From positions 57,444-121,443 of the forward strand of contig JAKAFU010000001.1 of the NCBI GenBank assembly GCA_021825865.1: 64,000 nt of DNA, given 5' to 3'. Origin of the DNA: a bacterium (GTDB taxonomy: Bacteria; SZUA-79; Acidulodesulfobacterales; Acidulodesulfobacteraceae). Position 1 is the first letter of the stretch, and each line of letters begins with the position of its first letter. The translations under genes and the position numbers were made by a program. The notes beneath the pieces are model-generated. The model made no database searches. It saw only the letters and a program-made list of their open reading frames with translations, and was not told the DNA's origin. Below, piece by piece: positions 7,046 to 40,246 of this stretch.

Positions 7046-7236
7046 AATGGCAAGATTTGTTTAATATTTATATTTCTTTACTGCATATTTATACTGCACA
7101 TTAAGTCTATATCATATTATTGTTTAGGGTTAAATAGAGATAGACAAATATTTTAATACGTAATAAAGCACAGTGACAATTATATCATTAAACCGTAAAC
7201 ATGAAAATAAGAATCGGTTCTATATAATTATCAAAC

Positions 7237-23328: not shown

Positions 23329-25089
23329 ATGCGATTGAAATCAATCTGTATTGGTGCGGTAATATTTTATTTTTTGGTATACTTATGCAATCCTGTTACC
23401 GTGTTTGCAATTAAGCTTAAAAAACAGCAAATTAAACCGCCGCATAGCGGTCTTAGTTTTATGCTTGGAGGCAGGTATATAGGCGCGGCTCTTTATGCCG
23501 AGAATCAAGGGCAAGGATTTCAAAATGTTTCAGGATATCCGAATAATAATTCATTTCAAGAATTTGCCCAAATGTTAAGGGTTAATACATTAATTAAATA
23601 TAAAAAACTTATAAGTTTATATACCCAGTTTGCACTTTCAAGCGATTATAACGGCATTGCAAACTATTATGGCGGAATTCCCCCTGGATTCCAAACGCTG
23701 GCTCAAAATCCTGTGCCGGTCGGTTTTAATAATGATTTTGATACATTTGGCATTAGAGAAGTTTATATTAATTTAAGATTGCCAAATCAATATTTCAGAC
23801 ATATTATATTTGGCAGAACATTTTTGCATTTTGGTCTCGGAGTAGCTATAAGAACAGATGTTGATGGTATATTTGATAATTTTAATGTCGGCAATTTTAA
23901 TATAACCGCAGGTACCATGATAACATCGATGGCAGCTGCCGGGACATATTGTTATTCTTCAAACAAACTCAATCCTTGTAACACATTGCAAGGACTTGCC
24001 GGAACAACCGAAGGGTTTTATCCGACCTCTGCCATGGGCTATACCCATGTGCAAATGGGAACAATCCCTGTGATTCAATTCATAACAAAAAAACCCGTAA
24101 GGCATACGATTTTTAGCGCATGGTTTTCAGAGGCGCATCTTAATCAATTTCAGGCTCCGTTATATAATGTGCCAAATTCTGTTTATTTTCAAACATTTGG
24201 TTCATATACTAACGACAATAATTTTTGGCCTACCCTTAACATTACTTTGGCGGGCGGTTCGTTATGGTATGAAAACGGCAAAAATAAGCTTGCGATTGAA
24301 TTTGATTATCTCAGAGGTAAAGCTATGCCGACGTCGGCTGCTTTGTCTGATGGACTGCTTAATAGTCGCTCCGCTAATCATTATTTATGGACCCAGTGGG
24401 GAGGAGCTAACCCGAATTCTCCGCTGACTGCTCCTTTGCTGGTTGAACCGGCAGGCAACAATGCTTACGACACTATTAATTCATACGATATTTATGCCAA
24501 AGGCTCAACATTAACGAGCATTAAAAAGATGCCTCTTATGATAGGATTTAAATTTGGGCTTGGTGCTCCGGTAGAGGCAGGTTCATATGACATGTCCGAT
24601 TATTCAAGGGTTCAAAATCAACCTACTTTATTTGGCAATCTTATAACTTCTAACTGGCAGATGATACAGATACTCGCCCCCGGAAATAGTTATATGTATG
24701 GTGCACCGTTGTCTTCCAATCTGGAAAACAAAAGAATTGAAGAGATTTTATTCAGAGAGTTTTTACCTGATAAAAATAATTTAACTGAAGCTGTGATACA
24801 GGCTAACTGGGTAAAATCAAATATACATGTAAACGGCAAATATGTTCCTCTTTTTGGCGGAAGCAACATAGGAACAGAATTTGACCTCGATTTTGTGCAT
24901 GTTATTAAAAAAGGTTTTTTCTGGAAAGCTTGGGCGTCTTATATGTTCACAGGAAGAGGACTTGAGACATTTTATGGTCCGGGTAATTATTCGTCCGGCT
25001 GCGTAACTAGTGCTTCAACCGCATGCTTAGATACTGCGACGCATAAAAATATAGCTGCAGTAGGCACTGCTATTGTATGGAATTTTTAA
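23329..25089 (+). CDS. Predicted outer-membrane beta-barrel protein / porin of unrecognised family
   Basis: 586 aa. RBS AGGAGG. Signal peptide ..NPVTVFA|I. Gly/Asn/Tyr/aromatic-rich alternating composition. C-terminal ..GTAIVWNF (terminal Phe, the OMP sorting signature). Confidence 0.55.
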   Translation: MRLKSICIGAVIFYFLVYLCNPVTVFAIKLKKQQIKPPHSGLSFMLGGRYIGAALYAENQGQGFQNVSGYPNNNSFQEFAQMLRVNTLIKYKKLISLYTQFALSSDYNGIANYYGGIPPGFQTLAQNPVPVGFNNDFDTFGIREVYINLRLPNQYFRHIIFGRTFLHFGLGVAIRTDVDGIFDNFNVGNFNITAGTMITSMAAAGTYCYSSNKLNPCNTLQGLAGTTEGFYPTSAMGYTHVQMGTIPVIQFITKKPVRHTIFSAWFSEAHLNQFQAPLYNVPNSVYFQTFGSYTNDNNFWPTLNITLAGGSLWYENGKNKLAIEFDYLRGKAMPTSAALSDGLLNSRSANHYLWTQWGGANPNSPLTAPLLVEPAGNNAYDTINSYDIYAKGSTLTSIKKMPLMIGFKFGLGAPVEAGSYDMSDYSRVQNQPTLFGNLITSNWQMIQILAPGNSYMYGAPLSSNLENKRIEEILFREFLPDKNNLTEAVIQANWVKSNIHVNGKYVPLFGGSNIGTEFDLDFVHVIKKGFFWKAWASYMFTGRGLETFYGPGNYSSGCVTSASTACLDTATHKNIAAVGTAIVWNF

Positions 25090-25236
25090 TTTATTTAATA
25101 TATTATTGAAAGTTTTAAATCAAGTGTAAAAGAATGACAATATCTTATACGAAACATATGTGATTTAATCAAGTTTTCTATGTATACGATTTTAATTAAT
25201 AAAAAATAATTTTAACATTAAGGAGATTACGATATC

Positions 25237-25800
25237 ATGAACAAAAATATTAGGCAGTTTGCCGATGACGGCGAGAAGATAGTATTAAATACAAATAAAA
25301 TAACAAGAAGGGATTTTATAAAAAAAACAATTTTAACGACTGCTTTGACGATAGGAGCAAGTTCAATATTGAATGTTCCGAGAGATTCTTTTGCCAAAAG
25401 CATTTCACTTAAGCCGGTTAAGATGAAAACAAATTATGTTAAAACCATTAATGGGAAAGAAGTAAAGTGGATTGCTAATCCGACTGCCGAAGAAAAATTG
25501 CTGATTCCAAAAATAAGTCTCCCATTAATTGCGCAGGACGGGGCTATGGTGCCGATAAAAATGGAAGCCAAAAAGCCGCAAACCGACAATTTATATTTAA
25601 AAACTTTTTATATATGCGATTTAAATAATCCGCACCTATTGTTGGGTTCATTTGACTTGACGCCATTTAACGGTAAAGCGTATATTTCTACCAGAATAAA
25701 ATTGATGCAAGAGTCATATGTTCAGGTTCTGGCAGAATATTCCAATAATGAAGTTTATGGTGCAAGGAAACTTGTTAAAGTGACCGTAGGAGGATGCTGA
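25237..25800 (+). CDS. soxY: Sulfur-carrier protein SoxY (Tat-exported)
   Basis: 187 aa. Twin-arginine signal ..KITRRDFIKKTILTTAL... Immunoglobulin-like body. C-terminal swinging arm ..KLVKVTVGGC followed by TGA. Directly upstream of soxZ. Confidence 0.85.
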   Translation: MNKNIRQFADDGEKIVLNTNKITRRDFIKKTILTTALTIGASSILNVPRDSFAKSISLKPVKMKTNYVKTINGKEVKWIANPTAEEKLLIPKISLPLIAQDGAMVPIKMEAKKPQTDNLYLKTFYICDLNNPHLLLGSFDLTPFNGKAYISTRIKLMQESYVQVLAEYSNNEVYGARKLVKVTVGGC

Positions 25801-25886
25801 TTTTATTTTAAAAAATGTAAAATAATCAAAAAATTTTAACTTAGTTAATTAAAATCATGTATTTTTAATAAAATGAGGGATCAAAA

Positions 25887-26216
25887 ATGAAAATTGGAAC
25901 GATAATGGTAAGGGTGCCGAGAAAAGTAAAAAAAGGAAAAAATTTTAAAGTTTTAACTTTAACAGAACATCCTATGAATACAGGGCTTGTGAAAAATTCT
26001 AAAACAGGTAAAATTATACCCGAATGGATAATTAATAAAGTTAATATATTCTATGATAAAAAATTGATAACAACATGTAATTACGGCATAGGAATTGCGG
26101 CAAATCCTTTTTTAGCGTTTTATGTAAAGGCTGAAAAAAGTGCACCGTTAGATTTTGTAATGCATGACAACAAAGGCAATGTATATAAAAAATCTGTTCT
26201 GATAAATGTTTATTAA
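25887..26216 (+). CDS. soxZ: SoxZ, partner of SoxY
   Basis: 109 aa. ..VRVPRKVKKGKNFKVLTLTEHPMNTGLVKNSKTGKIIPEWII..ANPFLAFYVKA.. matches the SoxZ pattern (..HPMETG..G..IP..). Confidence 0.85.
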   Translation: MKIGTIMVRVPRKVKKGKNFKVLTLTEHPMNTGLVKNSKTGKIIPEWIINKVNIFYDKKLITTCNYGIGIAANPFLAFYVKAEKSAPLDFVMHDNKGNVYKKSVLINVY

Positions 26217-26240
26217 CTATATTACAATTACGGAGATTCA

Positions 26241-26726
26241 ATGAAAAAATTTATTGTTTTATTTTTATTTGTAATTATTTATTGCGGAGGTTCGGTCAAC
26301 AATGTTTTTGCTTTAAGTAAAAATAATAATAAAGCATTTTATATATTAAAAATAAAAAAGAGGTTTAAAGATGTTGTCTTCAATTTAAAGCAATCCATAA
26401 TAAATGATAATTATGTTATAGTTTCAGTAAATCCTATTTCTCAAGGTATACAAGGCATAGGAAAAAAAATATCAAAATTAGATGTCATTGAATTTTGTAA
26501 TTTATCTTACGCATACGATATTCTAAACGGCAATAAAAATTATGCGGCTTTTATGCCATGCAGAGTCGCTGTATATAAACAAGGAAAATATGTAGTTATT
26601 ATAGGATTTTTACCATCCTTTGCACTTAAATTTTTTAAAAATAATACTCCTATGATGAAAAAAACAGCATTGAAAGTAAGTCGTCAGATGGTGAGCATTA
26701 TAAATTCAGTAAAAGATGGTTTTTAA
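26241..26726 (+). CDS. DUF302-domain protein with signal peptide
   Basis: 161 aa. Signal ..VNNVFA|L. ..AAFMPCRVAVYKQGKYVVI.. resembles the DUF302 core motif (..lPCrv.vye..g..). Confidence 0.65.
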   Translation: MKKFIVLFLFVIIYCGGSVNNVFALSKNNNKAFYILKIKKRFKDVVFNLKQSIINDNYVIVSVNPISQGIQGIGKKISKLDVIEFCNLSYAYDILNGNKNYAAFMPCRVAVYKQGKYVVIIGFLPSFALKFFKNNTPMMKKTALKVSRQMVSIINSVKDGF

Positions 26727-26904
26727 AAAATTTATTAACATTAGGTTAGGCAATATATATTTTATGAATGTTAGCAGATTGATGCATAGACTATAAACAA
26801 TTAAGTTCTTAATCATGGTTGCTATGAAATTTTTAAGATAAAATAATAAAATTTTCTGTTTTATTTCATTTTAATTCAATTTATTAATGGAGATATAAAA
26901 AGCC

Positions 26905-28593
26905 ATGGAAAATACTGTTACAAGAAGAGATTTTTTAAAAAAAACTGCACTCCTTACAGGCTATTTAGCGATTAATCCTGTAAATTTGCTTAAGTATAAG
27001 CCTGTAGGGAATCTCACTATCATTTGGAATTCAGATTCCCATGCGCATTTAAAACCGGTATTGTATAGGGAACCGTCAGTAAATATAGGTCCTAAAATCA
27101 TGAACGGCAGACCCGGTCATTTAGTCGGAGATTCTTTCTGTCTGTATTATGATATAAACCCAAAGTCGGCTATGGGATATTTTTGTTCTTACAAAAATTT
27201 TAATAACCTATCTAAGGAATATGGACCTATGGGCGGATATGCTCATATGAGCACGGTAATAAATAAAATTAGGGATGAAAGATATGGCAAAACTATATTA
27301 CTTGATACCGGCGATTCATGGCAAGGAACCGGCATTGCTCTTTTGACGAAAGGAAAGGCTGTCTATACTGTTCAAAATGCGATGGGTTATGACGCAATGA
27401 CCGGGCATTGGGAATTTACTTACGGAAAGGAACAATTGCTGGAAAATATAAAAAATCTAAATTTCCCTTTTATTGCCCAGAATGTAAAAAATGCAACATG
27501 GGGAAATTTAATTTTTAAACCATATATTATAAAGGAAGTTAATGGGCTAAGAGTGGGTATAATCGGACAGGCATTCCCGTATGTTCCGCTTGCGCACCCG
27601 GCTCATTTTGTCGAAGGGTGGTCATTTGGCATAGATACCCACCATGCCCAAAAAATGGTAGATCAATTAAAAAATACTGAAAAAGTTGATATCGTAGTTG
27701 TACTTTCACATAACGGACTTGAAGTTGATAGAAAATTTGCAGCTTTAATTAAGGGCATAGATGTAATTGTGGGAGGTCATACCCATGATATTCTTCCAGC
27801 ACCTGAAATTATAAACAATACCATAATAGTTCAGGCAGGAACCCATGGAAAATTTATCGGAAGATTAGATTTAAATGTTTCAAATAAAAAAATTACGGCT
27901 TATGACCATAAGCTTATACCTATTGTCTCAAATTGGATTAAACCGGATCCTAAAATTACGCAGGTCATAGAAGACGAATTTAAACCCTATAATAATATAT
28001 TAAATGAGAAATTAGGGACGACGGAAAGTCTATTATACAGGCGGGCCACATTTATCAGTACGGTTGATAACGTTGCAGAGCAGGCTTTTATAGAAAAATT
28101 TGATGCTCCATTGTTTTTTGCCCCCGGTTGGCGTTGGGGGGAAACTTTGCTTCCAGGTTCCGATATTACTATGGAAAATGTTTATGGCGAATATGGAACA
28201 ACTTATCCTGAGGTTTACAAAACCCTTCTTACGGGAAAACAGTTATTATTATCGCAATTAAGTGTTCTGAGCGATGTTTTTGCGAAAGATGCTTATTTAC
28301 AGATGGGCGGAGACGCCACCCGTGTCTCCAATTCAAAATTTCATATACATATAAATGAATCATTTAATAAGAGAATCAAAAGCTGGGAAATTAACGGAAA
28401 ACCATTAAATTTGAATAAAAAATACTGGGCTGTATCAACAGGCGGAAAAATGCAAAACATGAACTCAGATGATAAAGGGTTAACAAAATTTAAAGCATGC
28501 GATGTTATTGCAGAATACATCAGAAATCATAAAATTATTCAATCAATCCAAACGGAAAAAGTTATATATCGCAAATCGCCAACCGCCGGTTAA
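26905..28593 (+). CDS. soxB: Thiosulfohydrolase SoxB (Tat-exported di-metal phosphoesterase / 5'-nucleotidase fold)
   Basis: 562 aa. Tat signal ..VTRRDFLKKTALLTG... Metallophosphoesterase motifs ..NSDSHAH.., ..TGDSWQGTG.., ..GHWEFTYG.., ..LSHNG.., ..GGHTHD... C-terminal 5'-nucleotidase-like domain. Confidence 0.9.
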   Translation: MENTVTRRDFLKKTALLTGYLAINPVNLLKYKPVGNLTIIWNSDSHAHLKPVLYREPSVNIGPKIMNGRPGHLVGDSFCLYYDINPKSAMGYFCSYKNFNNLSKEYGPMGGYAHMSTVINKIRDERYGKTILLDTGDSWQGTGIALLTKGKAVYTVQNAMGYDAMTGHWEFTYGKEQLLENIKNLNFPFIAQNVKNATWGNLIFKPYIIKEVNGLRVGIIGQAFPYVPLAHPAHFVEGWSFGIDTHHAQKMVDQLKNTEKVDIVVVLSHNGLEVDRKFAALIKGIDVIVGGHTHDILPAPEIINNTIIVQAGTHGKFIGRLDLNVSNKKITAYDHKLIPIVSNWIKPDPKITQVIEDEFKPYNNILNEKLGTTESLLYRRATFISTVDNVAEQAFIEKFDAPLFFAPGWRWGETLLPGSDITMENVYGEYGTTYPEVYKTLLTGKQLLLSQLSVLSDVFAKDAYLQMGGDATRVSNSKFHIHINESFNKRIKSWEINGKPLNLNKKYWAVSTGGKMQNMNSDDKGLTKFKACDVIAEYIRNHKIIQSIQTEKVIYRKSPTAG

Positions 28594-28806
28594 TACAATG
28601 CATCAAATATATTTATTAATAATGCCATCTTCCATCGAAGCGGTTTATTGCTGAATAAAATTGGCTAACTTGCGATTATTATTTACATACCGTAATTAGA
28701 CTGATAGTAAAATTAAATCAAATAAATAAAAATTATTTATAAATGTTGCATGCTGCTATATCATTCAATATTGGCTTTTATAACTAAATGATACCAGGAG
28801 AAAATT

Positions 28807-29280
28807 ATGAAAAATATATTAAATATAGTTGTTTGTGTGTTCTTCACCATTTTTTTAACTTTTGTATTTATACAAAATTCATATGCAAGAGTTAAAGACA
28901 TAAATGCGTTGAAATATTTTAAACATCATAAATTGAAAGAACTTTATCAGGTACCTCAAAATCCAAAATATTGGAGTTTATTATTGAATAATATTTCAAA
29001 CAACGTTAGAATTTCAGACACGCATTTTATTAATTATAAAATTCTTGTGGTAGCTTACGGTCCTGCTCTTAAACTTTTTATGAAATCTGACAAAAAATAT
29101 TATCCATTACTTCAGAGTATTGCCAGCTATGGCGTGAAATTAGTAGCATGCCATCAAACAATGTTAGGTATGCATGTAAAAAAATCGCAAATTTTTAAAT
29201 TTGTGCATATTGTTTATCCGGGTGCAATATTTTACATTGTACAAAAAGAAAATGAAGGCTATGCGTATCTGCAGCCGTAA
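28807..29280 (+). CDS. DsrE/DsrF-like (COG1416-type) protein with signal peptide, paralogue B
   Basis: 157 aa. Signal ..QNSYA|R. Core ..YKILVVAYGPALKLF...YGVKLVACHQTMLGMHVKK..FVHIVYPGAIFYIVQKENEGYAYLQP. Paralogue of 17884..18366. Confidence 0.6.
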   Translation: MKNILNIVVCVFFTIFLTFVFIQNSYARVKDINALKYFKHHKLKELYQVPQNPKYWSLLLNNISNNVRISDTHFINYKILVVAYGPALKLFMKSDKKYYPLLQSIASYGVKLVACHQTMLGMHVKKSQIFKFVHIVYPGAIFYIVQKENEGYAYLQP

Positions 29281-29316
29281 AAATAATTAAAATTAATTAA
29301 TTTTAATTATTTTTAC
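29277..29316. repeat. 40-bp perfect A/T-rich palindrome overlapping the stop codon of the DsrE-like gene. Possible weak bidirectional terminator or binding site.
   Basis: GTAAAAATAATTAAAATTAATTAATTTTAATTATTTTTAC equals its own reverse complement (checked base by base). Confidence 0.45.
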
Positions 29317-29480
29317 TATATTTCATTAATTTATATTTTTATGGTTATAAGCTGAGTTGAAATATTGATAATAAGTTTTTTATCTAAAATATAAATCAAT
29401 ATTGATTTATATAATATTTTATTTATGCAGTATAAAATGGCATTGCAATATATTATCTAAATAGATATTATATTTAGTTA

Positions 29481-30158
29481 ATGAGCAAAATAAAAAATAA
29501 TGACGAATTTATTTTAAAAGTAAACGATATTTTTTACAGTATTCAGGGAGAATCTTCATTTGCGGGCTCCCCCTGTTTTTTTGTAAGACTGGCAGGATGC
29601 AATATAAGATGTCCGTATTGCGACACAAAAGAAGCGCTGACGGATACAAACGCAAAATCAATGCATATCGGCGATATTATGACAGAAATAATAAAATGCG
29701 GCGAAAATGTAAAATTAGTGGAAATAACGGGCGGAGAACCTTTAATACAGAAAGGCGTTTATGAATTAATGAAAAGATTTTTAAATTTAAAATATACCGT
29801 GCTTGTTGAAACAAACGGCACGCTCAGTCTTAAAAGTATCCCGGATAAAGTCGTTAAAATAATGGATATAAAATGCCCGTCAAGCGGATATGCAAATTAT
29901 AACAATTTTGAAAATCTAAATTATATCAATAAAAACGATGAATTAAAATTTATTATAGGAAACACCGCAGATTATGAATTTGCTAAGAATTTTATAAACG
30001 TAAACAGAAAAATCATCAAAACGGAAAAAATAATATTCGGCGCTGTAGATGTCGCCGAAAATCAATTTTCACCGCATATTTTAGCCGAAAAGATTTTATC
30101 TGACAGGCTAAATGTTAAAATAGGATTACAGCTGCATAAATTCCTCGATTTGAAGTAG
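29481..30158 (+). CDS. queE: 7-carboxy-7-deazaguanine synthase QueE (radical SAM)
   Basis: 225 aa. ..FYSIQGESSFAGSPCFFVRLAGCNIRCPYCDT.. (CX3CX2C cluster plus the QueE N-terminal motif), ..EITGGEPL... Confidence 0.85.
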   Translation: MSKIKNNDEFILKVNDIFYSIQGESSFAGSPCFFVRLAGCNIRCPYCDTKEALTDTNAKSMHIGDIMTEIIKCGENVKLVEITGGEPLIQKGVYELMKRFLNLKYTVLVETNGTLSLKSIPDKVVKIMDIKCPSSGYANYNNFENLNYINKNDELKFIIGNTADYEFAKNFINVNRKIIKTEKIIFGAVDVAENQFSPHILAEKILSDRLNVKIGLQLHKFLDLK

Positions 30159-33976: not shown

Positions 33977-34696
33977 TTAGTAAGAGTTTAAAATATTCAG
34001 CTGTATTTCCGTCAACTGCGAAATAGCTTTTTTGGCGATAGCGCCAAATTTATTAATGAGTTCAAAATCTATAGGAGTTTTTTCCGCGCACCCCTGAATT
34101 TCGATTAAGTTTCCGCTTCCCGTCATTATAAAATTAAAGTCAAGTTCGGCGTTGGAATCTTCAGAATAATCAAGGTCAAGTAAAATTTCGCTATTCACAA
34201 TTCCAAGGCTTATAGCGGCGACGGAATCGTAAAACGGCATCTTTTCAATTCTGTTCTGTTTTAATAATTTTAGAAAAGCCAAATGCGCTGCTACATATGC
34301 GCCGGTAATAGAGGCTGTTCTTGTTCCGCCGTCGGCGCTTATGACATCGCAGTCGAGCAGCAGCGTAATATCCGGAAAATCTGAAAAATTAACCGCCGCT
34401 CTTAGAGCTCTTCCGATAAGTCTTTGAATTTCTTGGGCTCTTCCGTTGATTTTACCTTTTGAAGAATCCCGCTGCATTCTGGTCTGGGTTGAACGCGGTA
34501 GCATAGAGTATTCTGCCGTAATCCAGCCTTGCCCTTTATCTTTTAAAAAAGGAGGAACCTTATTTTCAACGCTTGCCGTGCATATTACATGGGTATCGCC
34601 GCATTTTATCATGCATGAACCTTCGGCATACTTCATATAGTCCGGAATGATTGTTATTTCTCTCATTTCATCAAAAGCGCGATTTTTTTTTCTCAT
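33977..34696 (-). CDS. rph: Ribonuclease PH
   Basis: 239 aa. ..GWITAEYSMLPRST..R..R....GKINGRAQEIQRLIGRALR.., ..DCDVISADGGTRTASITGAYVA... Confidence 0.95.
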   Translation of the reverse strand: MRKKNRAFDEMREITIIPDYMKYAEGSCMIKCGDTHVICTASVENKVPPFLKDKGQGWITAEYSMLPRSTQTRMQRDSSKGKINGRAQEIQRLIGRALRAAVNFSDFPDITLLLDCDVISADGGTRTASITGAYVAAHLAFLKLLKQNRIEKMPFYDSVAAISLGIVNSEILLDLDYSEDSNAELDFNFIMTGSGNLIEIQGCAEKTPIDFELINKFGAIAKKAISQLTEIQLNILNSY

Positions 34697-34778: not shown

Positions 34779-35027
34779 CTATGCCGATGTCCATTTTTTG
34801 TTCTGAATAACAAACATATAAAGGCCGTTAAACTTCATTGTATTCAAAAGCTTAGTGCCTACTAACGAACATACGGACGGTATGTCGTTAAGCATAGATT
34901 CTTTATCAGAGATTACCATAAGCGTTGATTCAGGTTTTAATGCTTTTAGTTTTCCGACGACCGCCAGAACAGGGGGTCCTCAGCATAAACCTCTTATGTC
35001 TAAAGTATTTATCGAGTCTGTATCCAT
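34779..35027 (-). CDS. TusA/SirA-like sulfur-carrier protein with an in-frame TGA at the catalytic Cys position (candidate selenoprotein; alternatively a pseudogene)
   Basis: Hand translation of the minus strand from ATG 35027 gives MDTDSINTLDIRGLC-[TGA 34980..34982]-GPPVLAVVGKLKALKPESTLMVISDKESMLNDIPSVCSLVGTKLLNTMKFNGLYMFVIQNKKWTSA, then TAG at 34779..34781. That is 82 codons, the TusA size. It matches the TusA motif LDxRGLxCPxP, with the TGA aligned to the essential Cys. The rest of the fold pattern is intact (..L.V..D.....DIP..C...G......). Missed by the ORF track, which shows only a spurious plus-strand ORF here. Confidence 0.6.
34933..34991 (-). other. Candidate bacterial SECIS-like structure around and after the TGA
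   Basis: Folded by eye on the mRNA. Inner hairpin GACCCCC-UGUUCU-GGCGGUC (6 bp plus one C-C mismatch, G/U-containing loop) starts 2 nt after UGA. Outer helix GGUUUAUGCU (ending at the U of UGA) pairs with AGCAUUAAAACC, with a 2-nt bulge. Confidence 0.3.
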
Positions 35028-35133
35028 TTTAATTTTACTCCTGTAATTTAAATTTAAATAATTTGGACTTATTATTTGTTATGGTACTTTGTAAAAATTT
35101 TTAATTTTTAGTATAACTAATGAGAAATTATAT

Positions 35134-35601
35134 TTATAAATTTATATTTTGAACCGCCGCATCGAGAACACCGTTTATAAAAAACGGAGAATCTGCATTG
35201 CCGAATTTTTTTGCTATTTCAATAGCCTCATTAATAGTGACATTTTTTGGAATTTCGGAATGAAACAATATTTCAAACATAGACTGCCTTAAAATGTTTC
35301 TGTCTATTCTTGACATTCTGTCAATAGACCAATTTTTTGATACTTTTTGAATAAGCAAATCAATTTTATCAAGATTATTTAAAGTTCCGGCTGCAATGTC
35401 TTTAAAAAAATCAAATATTTCCAAAGATTCTTTCTTTGTGTATAATTCGCCCGCAGAACTTATAAAACCATTATAAATGAGACTTTCAGAGGCAAAATTC
35501 ATAAAAAAAGCATTAAGTCTAAATTCGGTAGAATCAATCCCGCCGTCTGCTTCATATAAAAATTGCACTGCAAGTTCTCTTGCCATTCTTCTTTTTGTCA
35601 T
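35134..35601 (-). CDS. nusB: Transcription antitermination factor NusB
   Basis: 155 aa. ..RRMARELAVQFLYE.., ..WSIDRMSRIDRNILRQSMFEIL.., ..NEAIEIAKKFG....FINGVLD... Downstream of ribH, as in many bacteria. Confidence 0.9.
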   Translation of the reverse strand: MTKRRMARELAVQFLYEADGGIDSTEFRLNAFFMNFASESLIYNGFISSAGELYTKKESLEIFDFFKDIAAGTLNNLDKIDLLIQKVSKNWSIDRMSRIDRNILRQSMFEILFHSEIPKNVTINEAIEIAKKFGNADSPFFINGVLDAAVQNINL

Positions 35602-35649
35602 TATTAAGATATTATTTATATTGAAAGATTTTAAATTAAACTAAATATA

Positions 35650-36120
35650 TCATTTTTTAAGTTTTGCAAATAATGTAACCATCTCAACAATGGACATCGC
35701 CGCATCGAAGCCTTTATTGCCCATTTTAGTGCCCGCTCTCGATATTGCCTGTTCTATCGATTCGGAAGTAATAATACCGTAACTGACCGGAGTATTAGAG
35801 TTTACGGCCAGCTCCGAAACCATTTTGGCAACCTGTTGCGACAATAGGTCAAAATGATTTGTTTCTCCCCTTATCAAAGTACCTAAGCATACAATTCCGT
35901 CGTATTTTTTTGTTTCCGCCATTATTTTAATGGCCATAGGCAGCTCAAATGCGCCCGGAACTTTAACCACTGTTATATCCGATTCGTTGGCTCCGGAACG
36001 CGTCAGATAATCTATCGCTCCGTCCAAAAGTTTAGAATTTATAAATTCATTAAATCTGGATACGGCAATGCCGAATTTGAATCCTGCGGCGCTTAAATTT
36101 CCTTCTATTACATTATACAT
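35650..36120 (-). CDS. ribH: 6,7-dimethyl-8-ribityllumazine synthase
   Basis: 156 aa. ..FGIAVSRFNEFI...L..GA.., ..VVKVPGAFELP.., ..YDGIVCLGTLIRGETNHFD.., ..GIITSESIEQAISRAG... Confidence 0.95.
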   Translation of the reverse strand: MYNVIEGNLSAAGFKFGIAVSRFNEFINSKLLDGAIDYLTRSGANESDITVVKVPGAFELPMAIKIMAETKKYDGIVCLGTLIRGETNHFDLLSQQVAKMVSELAVNSNTPVSYGIITSESIEQAISRAGTKMGNKGFDAAMSIVEMVTLFAKLKK

Positions 36121-36142
36121 TTTAAAAGACCCCGTTTACTTA

Positions 36143-37369
36143 TTATTTTTTTATTGTTTTTTTATTATCTATATGCAGTATATGACCCATTTTTTCTTTT
36201 TTAGTTGTTAAATAATGCAAATTTTTGTGCGTAGGACAAATTTCAATAGGTACTCTTTCGACTACACTGAGGCCGTAGCCTTCAAGACCTATGATTTTTT
36301 TTGGATTATTTGTCATCAATCTCATTTTTCCGACGCCTAAGTCGACTAAAATTTGAGCTCCTACGCCGTATTCCCTCAAATCTGCTTTGAATCCTAATTT
36401 TTCGTTGGCTTCAACCGTATCATAGCCTTTGTCTTGCAGATTATACGCCTTAAGTTTGTTTACAAGTCCTATCCCCCTGCCTTCCTGACTGAGATAAAGT
36501 ATAACGCCCTTTCCTTCTTTTTCTATCATCTCCATAGCGTTCTTTAACTGGTCTCCGCAGTCGCATCTTTCGGAACCGAAGACGTCGCCTGTCAAACATT
36601 GCGAATGCACCCTGACTAAAATCGGTTCGTCTTTTTTTATATCCCCTTTAACCAAAGCAACATGTTCTTTAAAATCGATATCGTTTGAATATGCTATTAT
36701 TTTAAATTCGCCGCCGAATCTTGTAGGGATATTAGATTCAACCAATCTTTTTACATGTTTTTCATGTTTTACCCTATAGTTTATAATATCCTGTATCGTC
36801 AATATTTTTAAATCATGCTGTTTGGCAAATTCTATTAAATCCGGCATTCTTGCCATAGTTCCGTCATCTTTCATAATTTCGCATATTACGCCGGCAGGTT
36901 TAAGTCCCGCAATAGCTGCAATATCGGTAGAACCTTCGGTTTGCCCTGTCCTGACCAGAACGCCTCCGTTTTTGGCGGTAATCGGAAAAATGTGTCCCGG
37001 TCTTACGAGGTCTGTCGGTTTTGCGTCATCTTTTACGGCAGTGAGAATAGTCTGCGCCCTGTCAAAAGCAGAAATACCTGTCGTAACCCCTTCCGCCGCT
37101 TCTATTGAAACCGTAAAGGCGGTAGAAAATTTAGATTGATTATTCGCAGCCTGAGGAGGCAGATTCAGCTGGTCTGCTTTTTCCTGAGTCAGGGTAAGGC
37201 ATATTAATCCGCGTGCGTATTTTGTCATAAAGTTTATTGCTTCCGGTGTTACCATCTCGGCTGCCATGGTAAGGTCGCCCTCATTCTCTCTGTCTTCATC
37301 GTCAACCAAGATAATCATTTTCCCTTTTTTAATTTCTTCGGCTGCTTCTTCAACCGTTGTCATCGGCAT
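36143..37369 (-). CDS. ribBA: Bifunctional 3,4-dihydroxy-2-butanone-4-phosphate synthase / GTP cyclohydrolase II
   Basis: 408 aa. ..[12 protein letters not shown].., ..RPGHIFP.., ..RTGQTEGS.., and the GCH-II Zn motif ..[22 protein letters not shown]... Confidence 0.95.
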
Positions 37370-37421
37370 AATAAAACCTCTTATTTTTTTAAATTTAATT
37401 TAATTTAATTGTTCAAGTAAT

Positions 37422-38201
37422 TTATTTGAGAAAGCCGTTTTCATAAAGAAATTCGCGGGTTATATCAGTTTTTTTTATGTTTTTAAAGCTGCCGGTCTGT
37501 TCCGCCCCATATTTCTTTAATGAATACGAGTTTTTATTATAAGTACCGTGTCCTGCGTCATTTCTAAGGTTATTGCCGCCGGAGCCAGCTGCAGAGCCTG
37601 AATTTTCAAACAATTTTTCAGCATTATTTATGACGGCTTTTTCTATTATATCAAATTCGATATTGACAAACCCGCCTATTTTTATATCGCCTAAATTTGT
37701 AAATTTGTAAGTCAAAGGTATGATGCTCACATAAAAATCGTTATTTTTAATTTCATTAATTGTCAGACTGATGCCGTCAACCGCAATTGAACCTTTGTTG
37801 ATTAAATATTTAGAGGATTCGGGAGCGTTATTTGTAATACCTATTAAATAGGCATTGCTATATTGCCGTTTATTGATGATTTTTCCCGTTCCGTCAATAT
37901 GCCCTAACACAAAATGCCCGGATATATCGCTATTTACCGACAATGCCGGTTCAATGTTAACTTTAGTTCCGACTTTCATGTATTTTAATGACGATTTTTT
38001 AAATGTTTCCGGCGAAAAATCAAAATATACAGTCTTAGCGGTTATAGTTCTTACGGTCAGACATATTCCGTTAACGGCTATGCTCTGACCTATATATGAT
38101 TTTACGGAGCATTCAGGAAGGTAAACCCCCAATATTCCGCTGTTTGAACGAAACGTTATAGATCTGACCTCGCCTTTCTCTTTAATTATTCCGGTGAACA
38201 T
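37422..38201 (-). CDS. ribE: Riboflavin synthase alpha chain, with a roughly 50 aa C-terminal extension
   Basis: 259 aa. MFTGIIKEKGEV.., two lumazine-binding repeats (..SIAVNGICLTV.., ..SIAVDGISLTI..), plus a Gly/Ser/Asn-rich tail. Confidence 0.9.
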   Translation of the reverse strand: MFTGIIKEKGEVRSITFRSNSGILGVYLPECSVKSYIGQSIAVNGICLTVRTITAKTVYFDFSPETFKKSSLKYMKVGTKVNIEPALSVNSDISGHFVLGHIDGTGKIINKRQYSNAYLIGITNNAPESSKYLINKGSIAVDGISLTINEIKNNDFYVSIIPLTYKFTNLGDIKIGGFVNIEFDIIEKAVINNAEKLFENSGSAAGSGGNNLRNDAGHGTYNKNSYSLKKYGAEQTGSFKNIKKTDITREFLYENGFLK

Positions 38202-38409
38202 AATTTATATTTTAATAATTTATTTTAATAATTTAAGTTGCCGCTCGGTTTATTTATTAGAATACAATAGAAAGCTGAGATATTAAGATGTAATTAAAAA
38301 ATAAATAACAAAAAATCATCTTATTAATTGCCGTTTTAAATTAACCGCCGTATCGTCATTATATAACTCTGATATTGCTATGCTTGAATATCTTTAAACG
38401 CAGTAAAAA

Positions 38410-39804
38410 TTATGATTCGGGATAATAAATTAAAAAAACATCGTCGCCCGTTTTTTTTATATCCAAATTTTTTAATTTAATCAACTGTTTATTAGCGTAT
38501 AAATCATTCAGGCCGTCGTTAACGGCATTCCCAGGCTGCAAATTATTATTAAATTTATTTAAATTCAGATTTGAAAAATTAATTAAATCGAATGCGCTTA
38601 TAGAATTTCCGATAAAATTATTAAAATCCGCAGCCGTATTGTCAATAATATTAATATTCCCTACCAGATAAGGCGTTATATTAAATATTAATTTATCGTA
38701 AAGTCTATTTGATACAAGATAAGCAAATAAATTTGGTCCAGGCTCTACAAATATACTTGTAATACCGTATGCTGCGCATTCTTTAAAAATCTCGGCGATG
38801 TCAAGATAATGCTTTTTTTGCGTAACATCGCAACTGCTGCCGATAGTAAAACCGTTGTTTTCGGCGCTCCCTGTTGAATAATTTTTTAATCTGTCTTCAT
38901 AACTATTATTATATAATACTTCTTTTATAATTGCACCTTTTTGTTCAAGCAATTTTTTTCTTTTTAATTTTTCTTTACTATATTCGAAAGAAGTGAAAAT
39001 AAAAATTTTATCGTCATCATTTCTATATTTGAATAATTTTGAGCCGGCAGGCGTCATAAGATTTGAGTCAATAATAATTTTTGCAAACTTTTTTTCGGCA
39101 ATATTGTTATCCTTGCAGTATCTGATATTTAATCTGGGATTATCGCTTATAACCGTGTTGGCAGATACCATGATAGCGTCATGCATAAGCCGTAAATTAT
39201 GGGTATATCGTAAAGATTTTTCCGATGACAGATAAAACGGAGCATTATTCCTAGCATTACTTTTACTATCCCCCTTTACATTTTTACGGTAAAATCCAAC
39301 TTTTCCATCTATACTGATTGCAAGTTTGACCGTAATAAAGGGGAGATAGGCGTTAATATTTTTTATAAATATTTCGTTCAGTTTTTTTGCCCTGTCCTCT
39401 AAAATGCCGTATTTAACTTCAATTCCGTTATTTTCAAGGTATTTGAAACCGCTGCCCGAAACCCGAGGATTAGGGTCCTTCATGGCTGCAACTACGCGCG
39501 AAATTCCGTATTTTTTGATTGATTCAACGCATGGAGGAGTTTTTCCAAAATGGCTGCAGGGCTCTAAGCTTACATATAAAGTTGCCCCTTTTGCGCTGCC
39601 GCCTGCCATTTTAAGAGCAATAATTTCAGCGTGCGGTCCGCCTGCTTTTTTATGATATCCTGAGCCTATAACTTCGCCATTTTTAACAATTACGGAACCT
39701 ACCATAGGATTGGGGGACGTAAAACCGGCTGCTTTTTTTGCAAGATTTAATGTTTTGGCAATGTAATATTCATCGATGCGAGCAGTCATTTTATTTTTTT
39801 TCAA
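38410..39804 (-). CDS. ribD: Bifunctional riboflavin biosynthesis deaminase/reductase RibD, with insertions in the reductase domain
   Basis: 464 aa. Deaminase Zn motifs ..GGPHAEIIAL.. and ..EPCSHFGKTPPC... About 90-100 aa longer than usual. Its 5' end overlaps the nrdR stop by 14 nt. Confidence 0.9.
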   Translation of the reverse strand: MKKNKMTARIDEYYIAKTLNLAKKAAGFTSPNPMVGSVIVKNGEVIGSGYHKKAGGPHAEIIALKMAGGSAKGATLYVSLEPCSHFGKTPPCVESIKKYGISRVVAAMKDPNPRVSGSGFKYLENNGIEVKYGILEDRAKKLNEIFIKNINAYLPFITVKLAISIDGKVGFYRKNVKGDSKSNARNNAPFYLSSEKSLRYTHNLRLMHDAIMVSANTVISDNPRLNIRYCKDNNIAEKKFAKIIIDSNLMTPAGSKLFKYRNDDDKIFIFTSFEYSKEKLKRKKLLEQKGAIIKEVLYNNSYEDRLKNYSTGSAENNGFTIGSSCDVTQKKHYLDIAEIFKECAAYGITSIFVEPGPNLFAYLVSNRLYDKLIFNITPYLVGNINIIDNTAADFNNFIGNSISAFDLINFSNLNLNKFNNNLQPGNAVNDGLNDLYANKQLIKLKNLDIKKTGDDVFLIYYPES

Positions 39805-40246
39805 TTAAATCGGATACTGTTTCGTATAATTCGTTTATATCTTTAAACGACAGATAGACTGAAGCAAATCTCACATAGCTTATAGCATCGATATTTTTTA
39901 GTTTATTGAGAGCAAATTTTCCGATTTCCGTGCTTTGTATTTCGCTCAGACTGCTTTCCTCAATCCATTTTTCAACTGATTGGATTATAGTTTCTATATC
40001 TTCTATGGAAACAGGTCTTTTTTCACATGCTTTAATTAAACCGTTCAATATTTTCTGTCTGTCAAAAGCTTCGCGTCTGCCGTCTTTTTTAATAATTAAA
40101 GGCAATGACATGACAATGGTTTCTAATGTATAAAATTTTTTGCCGCAAAAATTGCACTGCCTTTTTCTCCGGACTGCTTTTGCATCTTTAGATAACCTTG
40201 AATCTATAACTTTATCGTCTTCACTTGAACAAAACGGACATTTCAT
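39791..40246 (-). CDS. nrdR: Transcriptional repressor NrdR (zinc ribbon plus ATP-cone)
   Basis: 151 aa. MKCPFCSS..KVIDSR........RRKRQCNFCGKKFYTLE.., with an ATP-cone after it. Confidence 0.93.
   Translation of the reverse strand: MKCPFCSSEDDKVIDSRLSKDAKAVRRKRQCNFCGKKFYTLETIVMSLPLIIKKDGRREAFDRQKILNGLIKACEKRPVSIEDIETIIQSVEKWIEESSLSEIQSTEIGKFALNKLKNIDAISYVRFASVYLSFKDINELYETVSDLIEKK

Follow-up and report, generated by a model that had tools for sequence, protein, structure and literature searches.

A gap in the gene annotation of a bacterial contig, between nusB and rph, raises the question of whether a TGA codon is a stop or encodes selenocysteine (Sec), and of what the product would do. The gap lies in the window, i.e. 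the whole 64-kb stretch of DNA that was analysed, and its minus strand reads as a gene for a TusA-like protein. TusA is a central cytoplasmic sulfur hub, involved in tRNA thiolation, molybdenum cofactor synthesis and dissimilatory sulfur oxidation, the latter running via DsrEFH/DsrC or sHdr.

A TusA-like gene with a single in-frame TGA

The minus-strand translation of the gene (Table 1) is MDTDSINTLDIRGLC*GPPVLAVVGKLKALKPESTLMVISDKESMLNDIPSVCSLVGTKLLNTMKFNGLYMFVIQNKKWTSA*, where the asterisks stand for the TGA and the terminal TAG. The TGA is followed by 66 sense codons up to the TAG at 34779..34781, and the N-terminal sequence, MD(T/N/M)(D/N)SI(N/S)TLD, is kept among the closest relatives. 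No other frame of the window is split by a TGA inside an otherwise non-coding gap, and no other TGA-split gene with a continuous frame was found there. A scan for promoters and terminators returned sites that are no commoner than chance in AT-rich DNA.

Table 1. Features of the TusA-like gene, in window positions.
Feature	Position	Strand	Remarks
Sec-containing TusA-like CDS	34779..35027	minus	82 residues including the proposed Sec16, then TAG stop
ATG start codon	35025..35027	minus	From sequence and translation
Shine-Dalgarno-like AGGAG	35038..35042	minus	10 nt 5' of the ATG; read from the sequence, putative function
TGC, Cys15	34983..34985	minus	Directly before Sec16 (vicinal Cys-Sec dyad)
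In-frame TGA	34980..34982	minus	Proposed selenocysteine codon, residue 16
Optional two-pair hairpin extension	34952..34969	minus	U-A and U-A in the window
Core SECIS-like hairpin	34954..34967	minus	Distance from UGA to loop start, 17 nt
Hairpin 5' arm, CUGGC	34967..34963	minus	
GGUC tetraloop	34962..34959	minus	
Hairpin 3' arm, GUCGG	34958..34954	minus	
46-residue ORF of standard gene callers	34779..34919	minus	Starts at internal Met37
TGT, Cys53	34869..34871	minus	Cys of the conserved NDIPxxC motif

When Sec is written as Cys, the Pfam TusA profile (PF01206) matches residues 8-75 (profile positions 2-69/70) across the TGA; the score is 42.6 bits (cut-off 28.6) and the E-value 5e-11. The AlphaFold model (pLDDT 86.5) has the order beta-alpha-beta-alpha-beta-beta, with strands at residues 6-10, 35-40, 59-66 and 69-75 and helices at 18-29 and 45-55. 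The best PDB match found by Foldseek is E. coli TusA (TM 0.79/0.83); YhhP, YeeD and SirA-like structures are also matched. In this model Sec16 is predicted to cap helix 1 at its N-terminus.

The preliminary description of this DNA had proposed a complete 82-codon TusA-like gene, whose single TGA replaces the codon of the persulfide-carrying Cys. The translation and the Pfam match agree with this gene structure, and the TGA does align with Cys19 of E. coli TusA (PDB 1DCJ and 3LVJ). The family motif on which the proposal was based, LDxRGLxCPxP, holds only in part: the alignment to the Cys stands, and the canonical C-P-x-P does not, since the Cys-Sec pair is followed by G-P-P. The local motif is L-D-I-R-G-L-C-U-G-P-P. 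The Cys-Pro-x-Pro of the TusA/SirA family is absent, with Sec in place of Cys and Gly or Leu in place of the first Pro. The family thus includes a variant of its active site, C-U-G-P-P, whose last three residues are L-P-P or L-Q-P in two members.

The NCBIfam equivalog model for TusA of the tRNA 2-thiouridine pathway (NF001423) gives 43.7 bits for a cut-off of 78, and the protein, being below this cut-off, is not orthologous to E. coli TusA. The scores against the YedF models NF008242 and TIGR03527 are likewise below the cut-offs, by a wide margin (26.8 vs 79 and 15.6 vs 110 bits, respectively), and the protein is a single 82-residue domain, which lacks the DsrE-like domain that the TIGR03527 type has at its C-terminus. 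NCBIfam has no dedicated model for this family, hereafter Sec-TusA.

The position of Cys15 is occupied by Cys in 19 of 19 sequences (TGC in 18, TGT in one), and it is equally invariant in a sister family with a Cys-Cys pair. This adjacent Cys had been overlooked; the Cys-Sec dyad that it forms opens a metal-binding or redox alternative. Cys53 is a Cys in 15/16 sequences and aligns with the cysteine of the DIPGFC motif of E. coli TusA.

Decoding of the UGA codon

The Cys-TGA pair is kept in all 19 distinct relatives that were recovered, and none of them has Cys at the TGA codon. They come from Ca. Acidulodesulfobacterota, Nitrospirota and unassigned metagenome contigs, with identities down to 44%, and represent at least two phyla, three different gene neighbourhoods and gene GC contents of 34 to 56%. 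None of the 19 has an additional stop or a frameshift, and the sequence is conserved on both sides of the TGA. Among the LDIRGLC codons 5' of the TGA, 506 synonymous differences were counted vs 120 non-synonymous ones, which indicates that selection acts on the protein, in this frame, before the TGA as well. The window itself is colinear with contigs of Ca. Acididesulfobacter (80-90% nucleotide identity).

The Sec clade is monophyletic in 97 of 100 resamplings. The search returned no orthologue with Cys at more than about 42% identity, and Sec-TusA is an obligately Sec clade. The closest full-length relatives (about 38% mean identity) form a family of at least 209 proteins, CC-TusA, in which the dipeptide aligned with Cys-Sec is Cys-Cys in 121 of 123 sequences. 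The database copies of Sec-TusA that we have seen are all mis-annotated, either as fragments of 46-71 residues (entries P0002-P0009, P0016 and P0019) or with Trp at the UGA.

Downstream of the UGA lies a conserved hairpin with covarying pairs. In the core 5-bp stem, 100% of the 70 cells are paired, compensatory changes occur at two stem pairs (C-G/U-A/A-U and U-G/G-C/U-A), and the covariation score was reached by none of 500 shuffles. RNAalifold independently predicts the same hairpin. The GGUC tetraloop is invariant and its 17-nt distance from the UGA identical in all members. The codons CTG GCG GTC GTC are frozen in 16/16 sequences (P of about 5e-4 for the synonymous sites, calculated from the codon usage of the window). 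The stem can be prolonged by two pairs, one of which (21-36) is U-A in 8 sequences, C-G in 3 and broken in 3, and the other (20-37) U-A in 12 and broken in 2; this extension is not universal.

In bacterial SECIS elements the apical loop is 16-37 nt from the UGA (PMC10778597), and the hairpin has 5-6 bp and an invariant G in the loop (PMC4607533). The spacing, the stem and the loop G of the GGUC hairpin all agree with these published values. An Rfam search, at gathering as well as permissive thresholds, returned no SECIS-type match. Thermodynamic folding of the window sequence alone favours another hairpin, with the UGA inside its stem, and the evidence for the GGUC hairpin is therefore comparative. 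The minimum-free-energy hairpin (loop UGUUCU, -16 kcal/mol, z = -1.9) was rejected as a functional element: compensatory changes are lacking, 9 of 14 sequences cannot form one of the pairs, the 5' pairs are disrupted in sequences L024, L026 and L029, and the loop is only 8 nt after the UGA. In the 345 kb searched, there was no further TGA followed by a GGUC hairpin in a continuous frame.

The conserved TGA, the SECIS-like hairpin and the Cys homologues strongly support the earlier suggestion of a selenoprotein, and the comparison of sequences makes it very probable that the gene encodes one by the known recoding mechanism. The mRNA would be translated through UGA16, under the direction of a bacterial SECIS element located within the ORF. 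By analogy with E. coli fdhF, SelB loaded with Sec-tRNA(Sec) would bind to the hairpin when the UGA occupies the A site of the ribosome.

The Sec machinery of the host order can be traced in published tables. The KEGG groups K01008, K01042 and K03833 correspond to selD, selA and selB, respectively. The three are scored 1 1 1 1 for AP1-AP4, the four founding genomes of the order, which include the same genus (PMC6776010, Suppl. Table S3). Neither sel genes nor tRNA-Sec were found in the 345 kb that were searched. This DNA, the window and related loci, covers only a minor fraction of any one genome, the full size being about 2 Mb. When the window and 15 loci were searched for tRNA-Sec, a single tRNA-His was the result, and tblastn with E. 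coli SelA and SelD probes gave no match in this limited sample.

It is very unlikely that decoding of the UGA instead dispenses with the Sec machinery and inserts a standard amino acid (Trp, Cys or Gly), by read-through or reassignment. Database entry P0001 does have W at this position, but the W is a gene-caller artefact, because the underlying DNA has TGA, which does not encode W under the bacterial code. As had been argued previously, there is no general reassignment of TGA: it is the normal stop of 7/49 long ORFs of the window, where 98/98 Trp codons are TGG. Reassignment would also make a covarying SECIS-type hairpin purposeless, and the residue that homologues have at the aligned position is Cys, the classic counterpart of Sec. 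As for a pseudogene or two unrelated short ORFs separated by a real stop, gene callers annotate only the 46-63 downstream residues, but this reading is effectively refuted by comparative data: 19 distinct sequences from different phyla share the single TGA and have no other lesion, one frame is under strong purifying selection on either side of it, the Pfam domain and the predicted fold require both parts, and the clade is old and monophyletic, with a minimum identity of 44%.

Possible functions of Sec-TusA

Throughout the host order, the gene occupies the X position of a ribH-nusB-X-rph slot, a housekeeping context which suggests constitutive expression. No sulfur-relay partner is conserved beside it. 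In other lineages its neighbours are a radical-SAM protein, conserved in five contigs and absent from the window, and a histidine kinase; in one Nitrospirota contig a protein with a YHS metal-binding domain is 0.5 kb away. Sox genes, a DsrE-like gene and a tusA KO occur in the host, and most genomes of its order also carry dsrEFH/dsrC. The habitat of the host is metal-rich acid mine drainage, where the abundance of the genus correlates with Cu and Zn (PMC6776010).

The product would be a TusA-fold protein of about 9 kDa, with a Sec at the position of E. coli Cys19 and an invariant Cys before it. Its most likely function is a sulfur or selenium relay, with soft-metal binding as a serious rival. 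We tentatively propose, as a reading that could well be right, that the selenolate is the nucleophile of a chalcogen relay. It may accept sulfane sulfur, a thiosulfonate or selenium from a donor such as a cysteine desulfurase, a rhodanese or a DsrE-type protein, carry the cargo as a Se-S adduct and hand it on. The adduct could be resolved by Cys15 through an intramolecular Cys-Sec selenenylsulfide, and the low pKa of the selenol would preserve reactivity in an acidophile.

To our knowledge, all characterised TusA-fold proteins are sulfur or thiosulfate carriers, as the titles of PDB entries also indicate, which argues for the relay. So do the Sec forms of rhodanese, DsrE-like and YeeE/YedE proteins that are already known (PMC13188914), and the sulfur genes of the host and its order listed above. 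The lack of a conserved relay partner beside the gene and its radical-SAM and histidine-kinase neighbours in other lineages argue against it, and so do the replacement of C-P-x-P by U-G-P-P, the regulators that adjoin the sister family and the existence of metal proteins among the families with a Cys-Sec motif (CU).

The last three of these observations also bear on the soft-metal hypothesis, according to which the selenoprotein is real and its Cys-Sec pair is a ligand of a soft metal or metalloid (Hg, Cu(I), As(III) or Cd), in a metallochaperone or in the partner of a sensor. We consider this rather unlikely, yet to be taken seriously. The C-P-x-P of the sulfur-carrying TusA proteins is lost, and among the selenoproteins with a CU motif that the 2026 catalogue lists, several (CopZ-like form 2, MerB-like SaoL, HgcA and MbdU) are metal or organometal proteins. 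The YHS-domain neighbour and the metal-rich habitat (PMC6776010) point in the same direction. CC-TusA genes adjoin an ECF sigma factor (with a small membrane protein) or a MerR-family regulator that is closest to the metal-responsive types ZntR, CueR, CadR and MerR, with E-values of 1e-19 to 1e-15, all below the NCBIfam cut-offs; however, these contexts are from only two loci of the sister family and none from the Sec family. We know of no characterised TusA-fold protein that is a metal chaperone, which counts against metal binding, and in the host order the gene is in a housekeeping slot rather than in a metal-resistance operon.

A more specific form of this hypothesis, which we regard as somewhat less probable still, is that the Cys-Sec protein is a dedicated module for soft metals, metalloids or selenium, acting as a selenium-based metallochaperone or signal input in acidophiles and Nitrospirota, while its CC sisters serve the MerR and ECF regulators. 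If true, this would give the TusA fold a new function.

It is improbable, in our opinion, that the selenoprotein is a thiol-selenol oxidoreductase in which Cys15 and Sec16 cycle through a selenenylsulfide and reduce a partner such as a radical-SAM enzyme. The vicinal C-U and the G that follows are invariant, and C-U-G resembles the GCUG end of mammalian thioredoxin reductase, which counts in favour of this activity. A radical-SAM neighbour is conserved in the five contigs mentioned above, and most selenoproteins are redox proteins (PMC13188914). On the other hand, TusA is not a known oxidoreductase fold, and the window lacks the radical-SAM neighbour.

Whichever function is retained for Sec-TusA, among which we prefer the relay, this is a new selenoprotein family, previously uncatalogued. 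TusA/PF01206 is not among the 119 families of prokaryotic selenoproteins catalogued in May 2026 (PMC13188914), and no Sec-containing TusA, SirA, COG0425 or UPF0033 protein was found in the literature, including the selenoproteome reviews of 2022 and 2026. Sec-TusA extends the catalogued set of Sec proteins of sulfur trafficking, which already includes rhodanese, DsrE-like and YeeE/YedE proteins as partner families of TusA, by another family, and its Cys-Sec dyad makes it a tractable 9-kDa model of Se-S transfer chemistry or of selenium-based metal binding. Expression in E. coli may be feasible, because the SECIS element closely resembles that of fdhF. A dedicated profile would correct the annotation in Acidulodesulfobacterota, Nitrospirota and related metagenomes.

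Comparison with known systems

E. coli TusA (YhhP/SirA; 1DCJ, 3LVJ) belongs to the same Pfam family as Sec-TusA and shares its fold (rmsd 1.3 A), its DIPxxC motif and the site of its reactive residue, which caps helix 1 at the N-terminus. The identity is only about 26-28%, Sec replaces Cys, there is an extra Cys before it, U-G-P-P is found instead of C-P-x-P, and the tusBCDE and iscS context is missing. Two other TusA-fold proteins are YeeD (TsuB; PDB 8K1R, TM 0.83), involved in thiosulfate uptake, and YedF ("SirA-like"), which is tied to selenium metabolism by its gene context (PMC5322559). Both are Cys proteins. Sec-TusA has no yedE/yeeE neighbour.

CC-TusA (G-[LM]-C-C-[SA]-x-P) has the length and the motifs of Sec-TusA, with Cys-Cys in place of Cys-Sec. 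It is an all-Cys, separate clade, present in Sulfuriferula, Ectothiorhodospiraceae and similar lineages of sulfur oxidisers. Databases label it only as "sulfurtransferase TusA family protein", and no characterisation of this subfamily was found in the literature.

The SECIS element of E. coli fdhF is also a hairpin within the ORF and has an identical GGUC tetraloop, 18 nt after its UGA vs 17 nt in Sec-TusA. The stem of the latter is unrelated and shorter (a 5-bp core, with two G-U pairs in the window) and lacks a conserved long lower stem. The bulged U of the fdhF element has no evident counterpart.

In the Sec rhodanese-like (forms 1-5), DsrE-like and YeeE/YedE proteins, Sec likewise takes the place of the reactive Cys in a protein that handles sulfur. 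These selenoproteins were predicted from the same type of comparative evidence (PMC13188914, Table 1), and they belong to other folds and families than Sec-TusA.

Finally, the adjacent Cys and Sec are common to Sec-TusA and to the CU-motif selenoproteins SaoL, HgcA, SaoC, MbdU, CopZ-like form 2 and KCU-star/DUF466, which are typically truncated at the CU site in databases (bioRxiv 10.1101/2022.07.06.499078). The sequences and folds of these proteins are unrelated to those of Sec-TusA, and several of them are metal or organometal proteins.

A TusA-family gene with an in-frame TGA

The gap between nusB and rph contains, on the minus strand (34779..35027), a gene called here Sec-TusA, which reads MDTDSINTLDIRGLC-TGA-GPPVLAVVGKLKALKPESTLMVISDKESMLNDIPSVCSLVGTKLLNTMKFNGLYMFVIQNKKWTSA-TAG. 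Translation confirms the preliminary description, which had proposed an overlooked gene with a single TGA followed by 66 codons and a TAG; the mechanical ORF list gives just a 46-aa fragment (34779..34919). In the host order, the slot ribH-nusB-X-rph always houses this gene, and such a housekeeping slot is no direct clue to function. The riboflavin operon nrdR-ribD-ribE-ribBA-ribH-nusB (35134-40246, minus strand) leads directly into Sec-TusA, and a sulfur-oxidation cluster lies upstream (23329-30158). The ORFs of both contexts were named by colinearity with the related locus L006; SoxZ, called in L006, was not located in the window.

Features of the Sec-TusA locus and of related loci (window positions unless a locus is named)
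Feature	Position	Strand	Basis or remark
AGGAG 5' of the ATG	35042..35038	minus	read from sequence
ATG start	35027..35025	minus	read from sequence
In-frame TGA	34982..34980	minus	sole interruption; 66 sense codons after it
Putative SECIS hairpin CUGGC-GGUC-GUCGG	34967..34954	minus	5-bp stem, GGUC tetraloop starting 17 nt after UGA; frozen codons, covariation
TAG stop	34781..34779	minus	read from sequence
Flanking 155-aa ORF	35134..35601		NusB (PF01029) in colinear contigs
Flanking 239-aa ORF	33977..34696		RNase PH (PF01138) in colinear contigs
SoxY	25237-25800		colinearity with L006
DUF302-like ORF	26241-26726		colinearity with L006
SoxB-like ORF, 5'-nucleotidase C-terminal domain	26905-28593		colinearity with L006
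DsrE-like ORF	28807-29280		colinearity with L006
Small radical-SAM ORF	29481-30158		colinearity with L006
Radical-SAM/histidine-kinase neighbours	L012 606-938; L019 2712-4304; L020 2004-2735; L021 2204-3775, 3960-4994; L022 543-2129, 2371-2946
CC-TusA cassette loci	L030 5254-6231; L031; L032 5759-6701; L033

When the TGA is written as Cys, the Pfam TusA profile (positions 2-69/70) spans the stop, from residue 8 to 75, with 42.6 bits against a cut-off of 28.6; at the Pfam level the protein is a TusA family member. Every NCBIfam score is under its cut-off, so that Sec-TusA does not qualify as an equivalog of either TusA or YedF; the canonical CPxP motif is absent as well. In E. coli TusA the persulfide-accepting cysteine is Cys19, and residue 16 of Sec-TusA aligns with it (solved structures 1DCJ and 3LVJ). 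The TGA therefore falls, as proposed, on the persulfide-carrying position of the active site, but the C-P-x-P reading of the motif does not hold, since the sequence is C-U-G-P-P, with a vicinal Cys-Sec pair.

The AlphaFold model of P0001, a database protein from a relative (aligned with 55 all-Cys relatives), has a mean pLDDT of 86.5 and a beta-alpha-beta-alpha-beta-beta topology, and residue 16 caps the N-terminus of helix 18-29. Its best PDB match is E. coli TusA in complex with IscS (3LVJ, TM 0.79/0.83, rmsd 1.3 Å); YhhP (1DCJ), the YeeD domain of the YeeE-YeeD thiosulfate-uptake complex (8K1R) and the SirA-like protein 3HZ7 are also among the best matches.

Conservation of the TGA and of a downstream hairpin

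A word-indexed search across 5.8 billion proteins brought up a single full-length relative, P0001, which is 83% identical and has W in place of the TGA, together with six fragments of 46-63 aa, all starting downstream of the TGA site. The W is a gene-caller artefact because the DNA behind P0001 (L001 281-529) has a TGA there. The public ENA gene call renders it as Trp, which gives a spurious full-length protein (W16); a TGA=Trp genetic code was presumably chosen for this short, low-GC contig. All database copies encountered are either cut short or mistranslated, and Trp-translated entries such as P0001 can conceal selenoproteins as apparent Trp variants.

Relatives were gathered from the DNA of every fragment, from family-alignment scans of species-representative genomes and metagenomes, and from more fragments traced in an exhaustive search of 1.84 billion representatives. 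The 19 distinct nucleotide sequences come from Ca. Acididesulfobacter MAGs (80-90% protein identity), more divergent genomes sharing the nusB-X-rph arrangement (L024-L029), Nitrospirota MAGs (L003/L023, L018) and unassigned soil or wetland contigs with other neighbours (L004, L012, L019-L022), and the GC content of the gene ranges from 34% to 56%. All 19 keep TGY-TGA at the Sec site, with no further stop or frameshift. The L-D-I-R-G-L-C codons preceding the TGA show 506 synonymous versus 120 non-synonymous differences over all pairs, so that selection at the protein level acts on the N-terminal 15 residues too, in the frame used by the remainder of the gene.

These two observations effectively rule out a pseudogene. 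General recoding of TGA is ruled out too, since TGA ends 7 of the 49 long window ORFs (TAA 36, TAG 6), as the preliminary description had noted of TGA as a genuine stop, and all 98 Trp codons in these ORFs are TGG. Sec-TusA is the only TGA-split frame inside the non-coding gaps of the window.

Downstream of the TGA, the L-A-V-V codons are CTG GCG GTC GTC in 16/16 sequences first compared, a string with a probability of about 5e-4 given the window's own codon usage; the lone V-to-A change in this stretch retains GCC. All other invariant four- to six-fold degenerate residues vary freely (codon entropy 0.7-1.9 bits). The stem of the corresponding GGUC hairpin becomes CGGGC/GCCCG, UGGGC/GUCCA or AGGGC/GCCCU in more divergent members, where the loop is still GGUC and the paired changes alter the encoded residues too (L to R or W; G to R, H or L). 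Two stem pairs show compensatory changes (C-G/U-A/A-U and U-G/G-C/U-A) and a third varies between G-U and G-C. All 70 cells of a 14-sequence alignment are paired (100%, compared to 24-76% in slid registers), the covariation score was reached by 0/500 shuffles, and RNAalifold independently predicts the same helix. An alternative hairpin favoured by single-sequence folding was rejected: covariation gives it no support, and its pairing is disrupted in many members.

The spacing from UGA to loop is exactly 17 nt in every member. Bacterial SECIS elements are described as having their apical loop 16-37 nt from the UGA (PMC10778597) and an apical hairpin of 5-6 bp with an invariant loop G (PMC4607533); the Sec-TusA hairpin agrees with both. 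The anticipated SECIS was thus found as a conserved covarying hairpin, with no match in an Rfam search. As judged from these comparisons, UGA16 is read through during translation, and selection maintains a SECIS-type hairpin at the proper distance from it.

A second TGA followed by 20 nt and CTTAT-GGTC-ATAAG occurs at 27930 (minus strand) and is conserved at L006 16971. No continuous reading frame crosses this TGA, and the element is probably due to chance or an ordinary stop context.

Cysteine counterparts and Sec machinery

In the exhaustive search of 1.84 billion representatives, no full-length relative exceeded about 42% identity. Those nearest to Sec-TusA all have the motif G-[LM]-C-C-[SA]-x-P and belong to an all-Cys sister family, CC-TusA, which appears uncharacterised. 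A profile search found at least 209 members, from lineages including Sulfuriferula, Ectothiorhodospiraceae and Burkholderiales; where named, they are called 'sulfurtransferase TusA family protein'. The dyad is Cys-Cys in 121/123, and Sec aligns with its second Cys, as in classical Cys/Sec pairs. A neighbour-joining tree groups the 18 Sec sequences (minimum identity 44%) as one clade in 97/100 column resamplings; their mean identity to CC-TusA is 38%. This points to one old Cys/Sec switch, retained since, and not to sporadic nonsense mutations.

The selenoprotein reading of the preliminary description is supported by the 19/19 TGA, the covarying hairpin and the Cys homologues, and Sec-TusA is very probably a selenoprotein form of TusA, in both identity and recoding mechanism.

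No tRNA-Sec, SelA or SelD was found in the window or the related loci, which amount to a small fraction of a genome. Over 15-20 kb the window is colinear with named Ca. Acididesulfobacter contigs, at 80.6% nucleotide identity for species AP1 and up to 90% for other assemblies. We take K01008, K01042 and K03833 to be selD, selA and selB (KEGG), and K04085 to be tusA. The first three are present in all four founding genomes of the host order, AP1-AP4 (PMC6776010, Supplementary Table S3), and the lineage therefore has the Sec trait, which the window's own genome presumably shares. K04085 and K00123 (formate dehydrogenase major subunit) are also present in all four, and dsrEFH/dsrC in three (PMC6776010).

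Possible functions and comparison with known systems

The likeliest of three roles, proposed tentatively, is a chalcogen relay in which the selenolate at the TusA active-site position would act as nucleophile. Sulfane sulfur, thiosulfonate or selenium would be accepted from a desulfurase, a rhodanese or a DsrE-type protein and then handed on, with Cys15 perhaps resolving the adduct by forming a selenenylsulfide.

The main rival, binding of a soft metal or metalloid by the Cys-Sec dyad, is less likely. It would fit with several CU-motif selenoproteins of the 2026 catalogue, which are metal or organometal proteins, with the MerR-family regulator that adjoins one of the two CC-TusA loci examined (most like ZntR, CueR, CadR and MerR, all matches being below NCBIfam cut-offs), with the ECF sigma factor and small YgaP-like membrane protein that adjoin the other, and with a YHS-domain protein near Sec-TusA in one Nitrospirota contig.

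The CC-TusA cassettes of these two lineages consist of a YgaP-like TM protein, an ECF sigma factor and CC-TusA, or of a 75-aa ORF, CC-TusA and a MerR-family regulator. The YHS/TRASH metal-binding-domain protein (L018 10777-11079) lies about 0.5 kb downstream of Sec-TusA; YHS-domain proteins are a listed selenoprotein family, and the ORF read has no in-frame TGA.

A thiol-selenol redox role, the third possibility, is improbable. A possible client is a conserved radical-SAM protein (PF04055, about 525 aa) that directly follows Sec-TusA in five independent non-Acidulodesulfobacterales contigs and may be its operon partner, but the window has no homologue of this protein. Its B12-binding-domain match is weak and sub-threshold and its NCBIfam subfamily matches are all far below cut-off. 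Where the contig is long enough (L019, L021, L022), a histidine-kinase-like protein (HATPase_c) comes next.

A Cys-type TusA paralogue (PF01206, E = 6e-14; LDAKNLRCVLL, also without CPxP) lies immediately upstream of Sec-TusA at L020 774-1013 and L021 1209-1448. In L026, a 457-aa FAD-linked oxidase gene (FAD_binding_4/FAD-oxidase_C, 6648-8021) lies downstream of rph and ham1; the otherwise identical L027 has no called counterpart in a gap of just about 0.7 kb (6645-7355), which suggests a deletion or a difference between the assemblies.

No Sec-containing TusA, SirA, COG0425 or UPF0033 protein was found in the full-text literature searched, subscription-only papers being outside its reach, and the family could stand under a generic name in supplementary lists of large screens. 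SirA-like/YedF proteins are treated in the literature as Cys-containing selenium-metabolism factors. A May 2026 review, 'the most comprehensive inventory', lists 119 prokaryotic selenoprotein families and subfamilies, including rhodanese (five forms), DsrE-like and YeeE/YedE, with no PF01206/TusA entry (PMC13188914); a 2022 selenoproteome review does not mention Sec-TusA and NCBIfam release 20 has no dedicated model. We rate Sec-TusA as a new selenoprotein family using the standard bacterial recoding mechanism. It fills a gap in the sulfur-trafficking selenoproteome and is mechanistically unsurprising; new selenoprotein families turn up regularly.

By analogy with established bacterial Sec insertion, SelB with Sec-tRNA(Sec) would bind the GGUC hairpin at the moment when the UGA reaches the ribosomal A site. 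The SECIS of E. coli fdhF (TGA, 18 nt, GCA-GGTC-TGC, checked against a set of 5,426 E. coli genomes) carries an identical tetraloop, and its distance from the UGA is almost equal.
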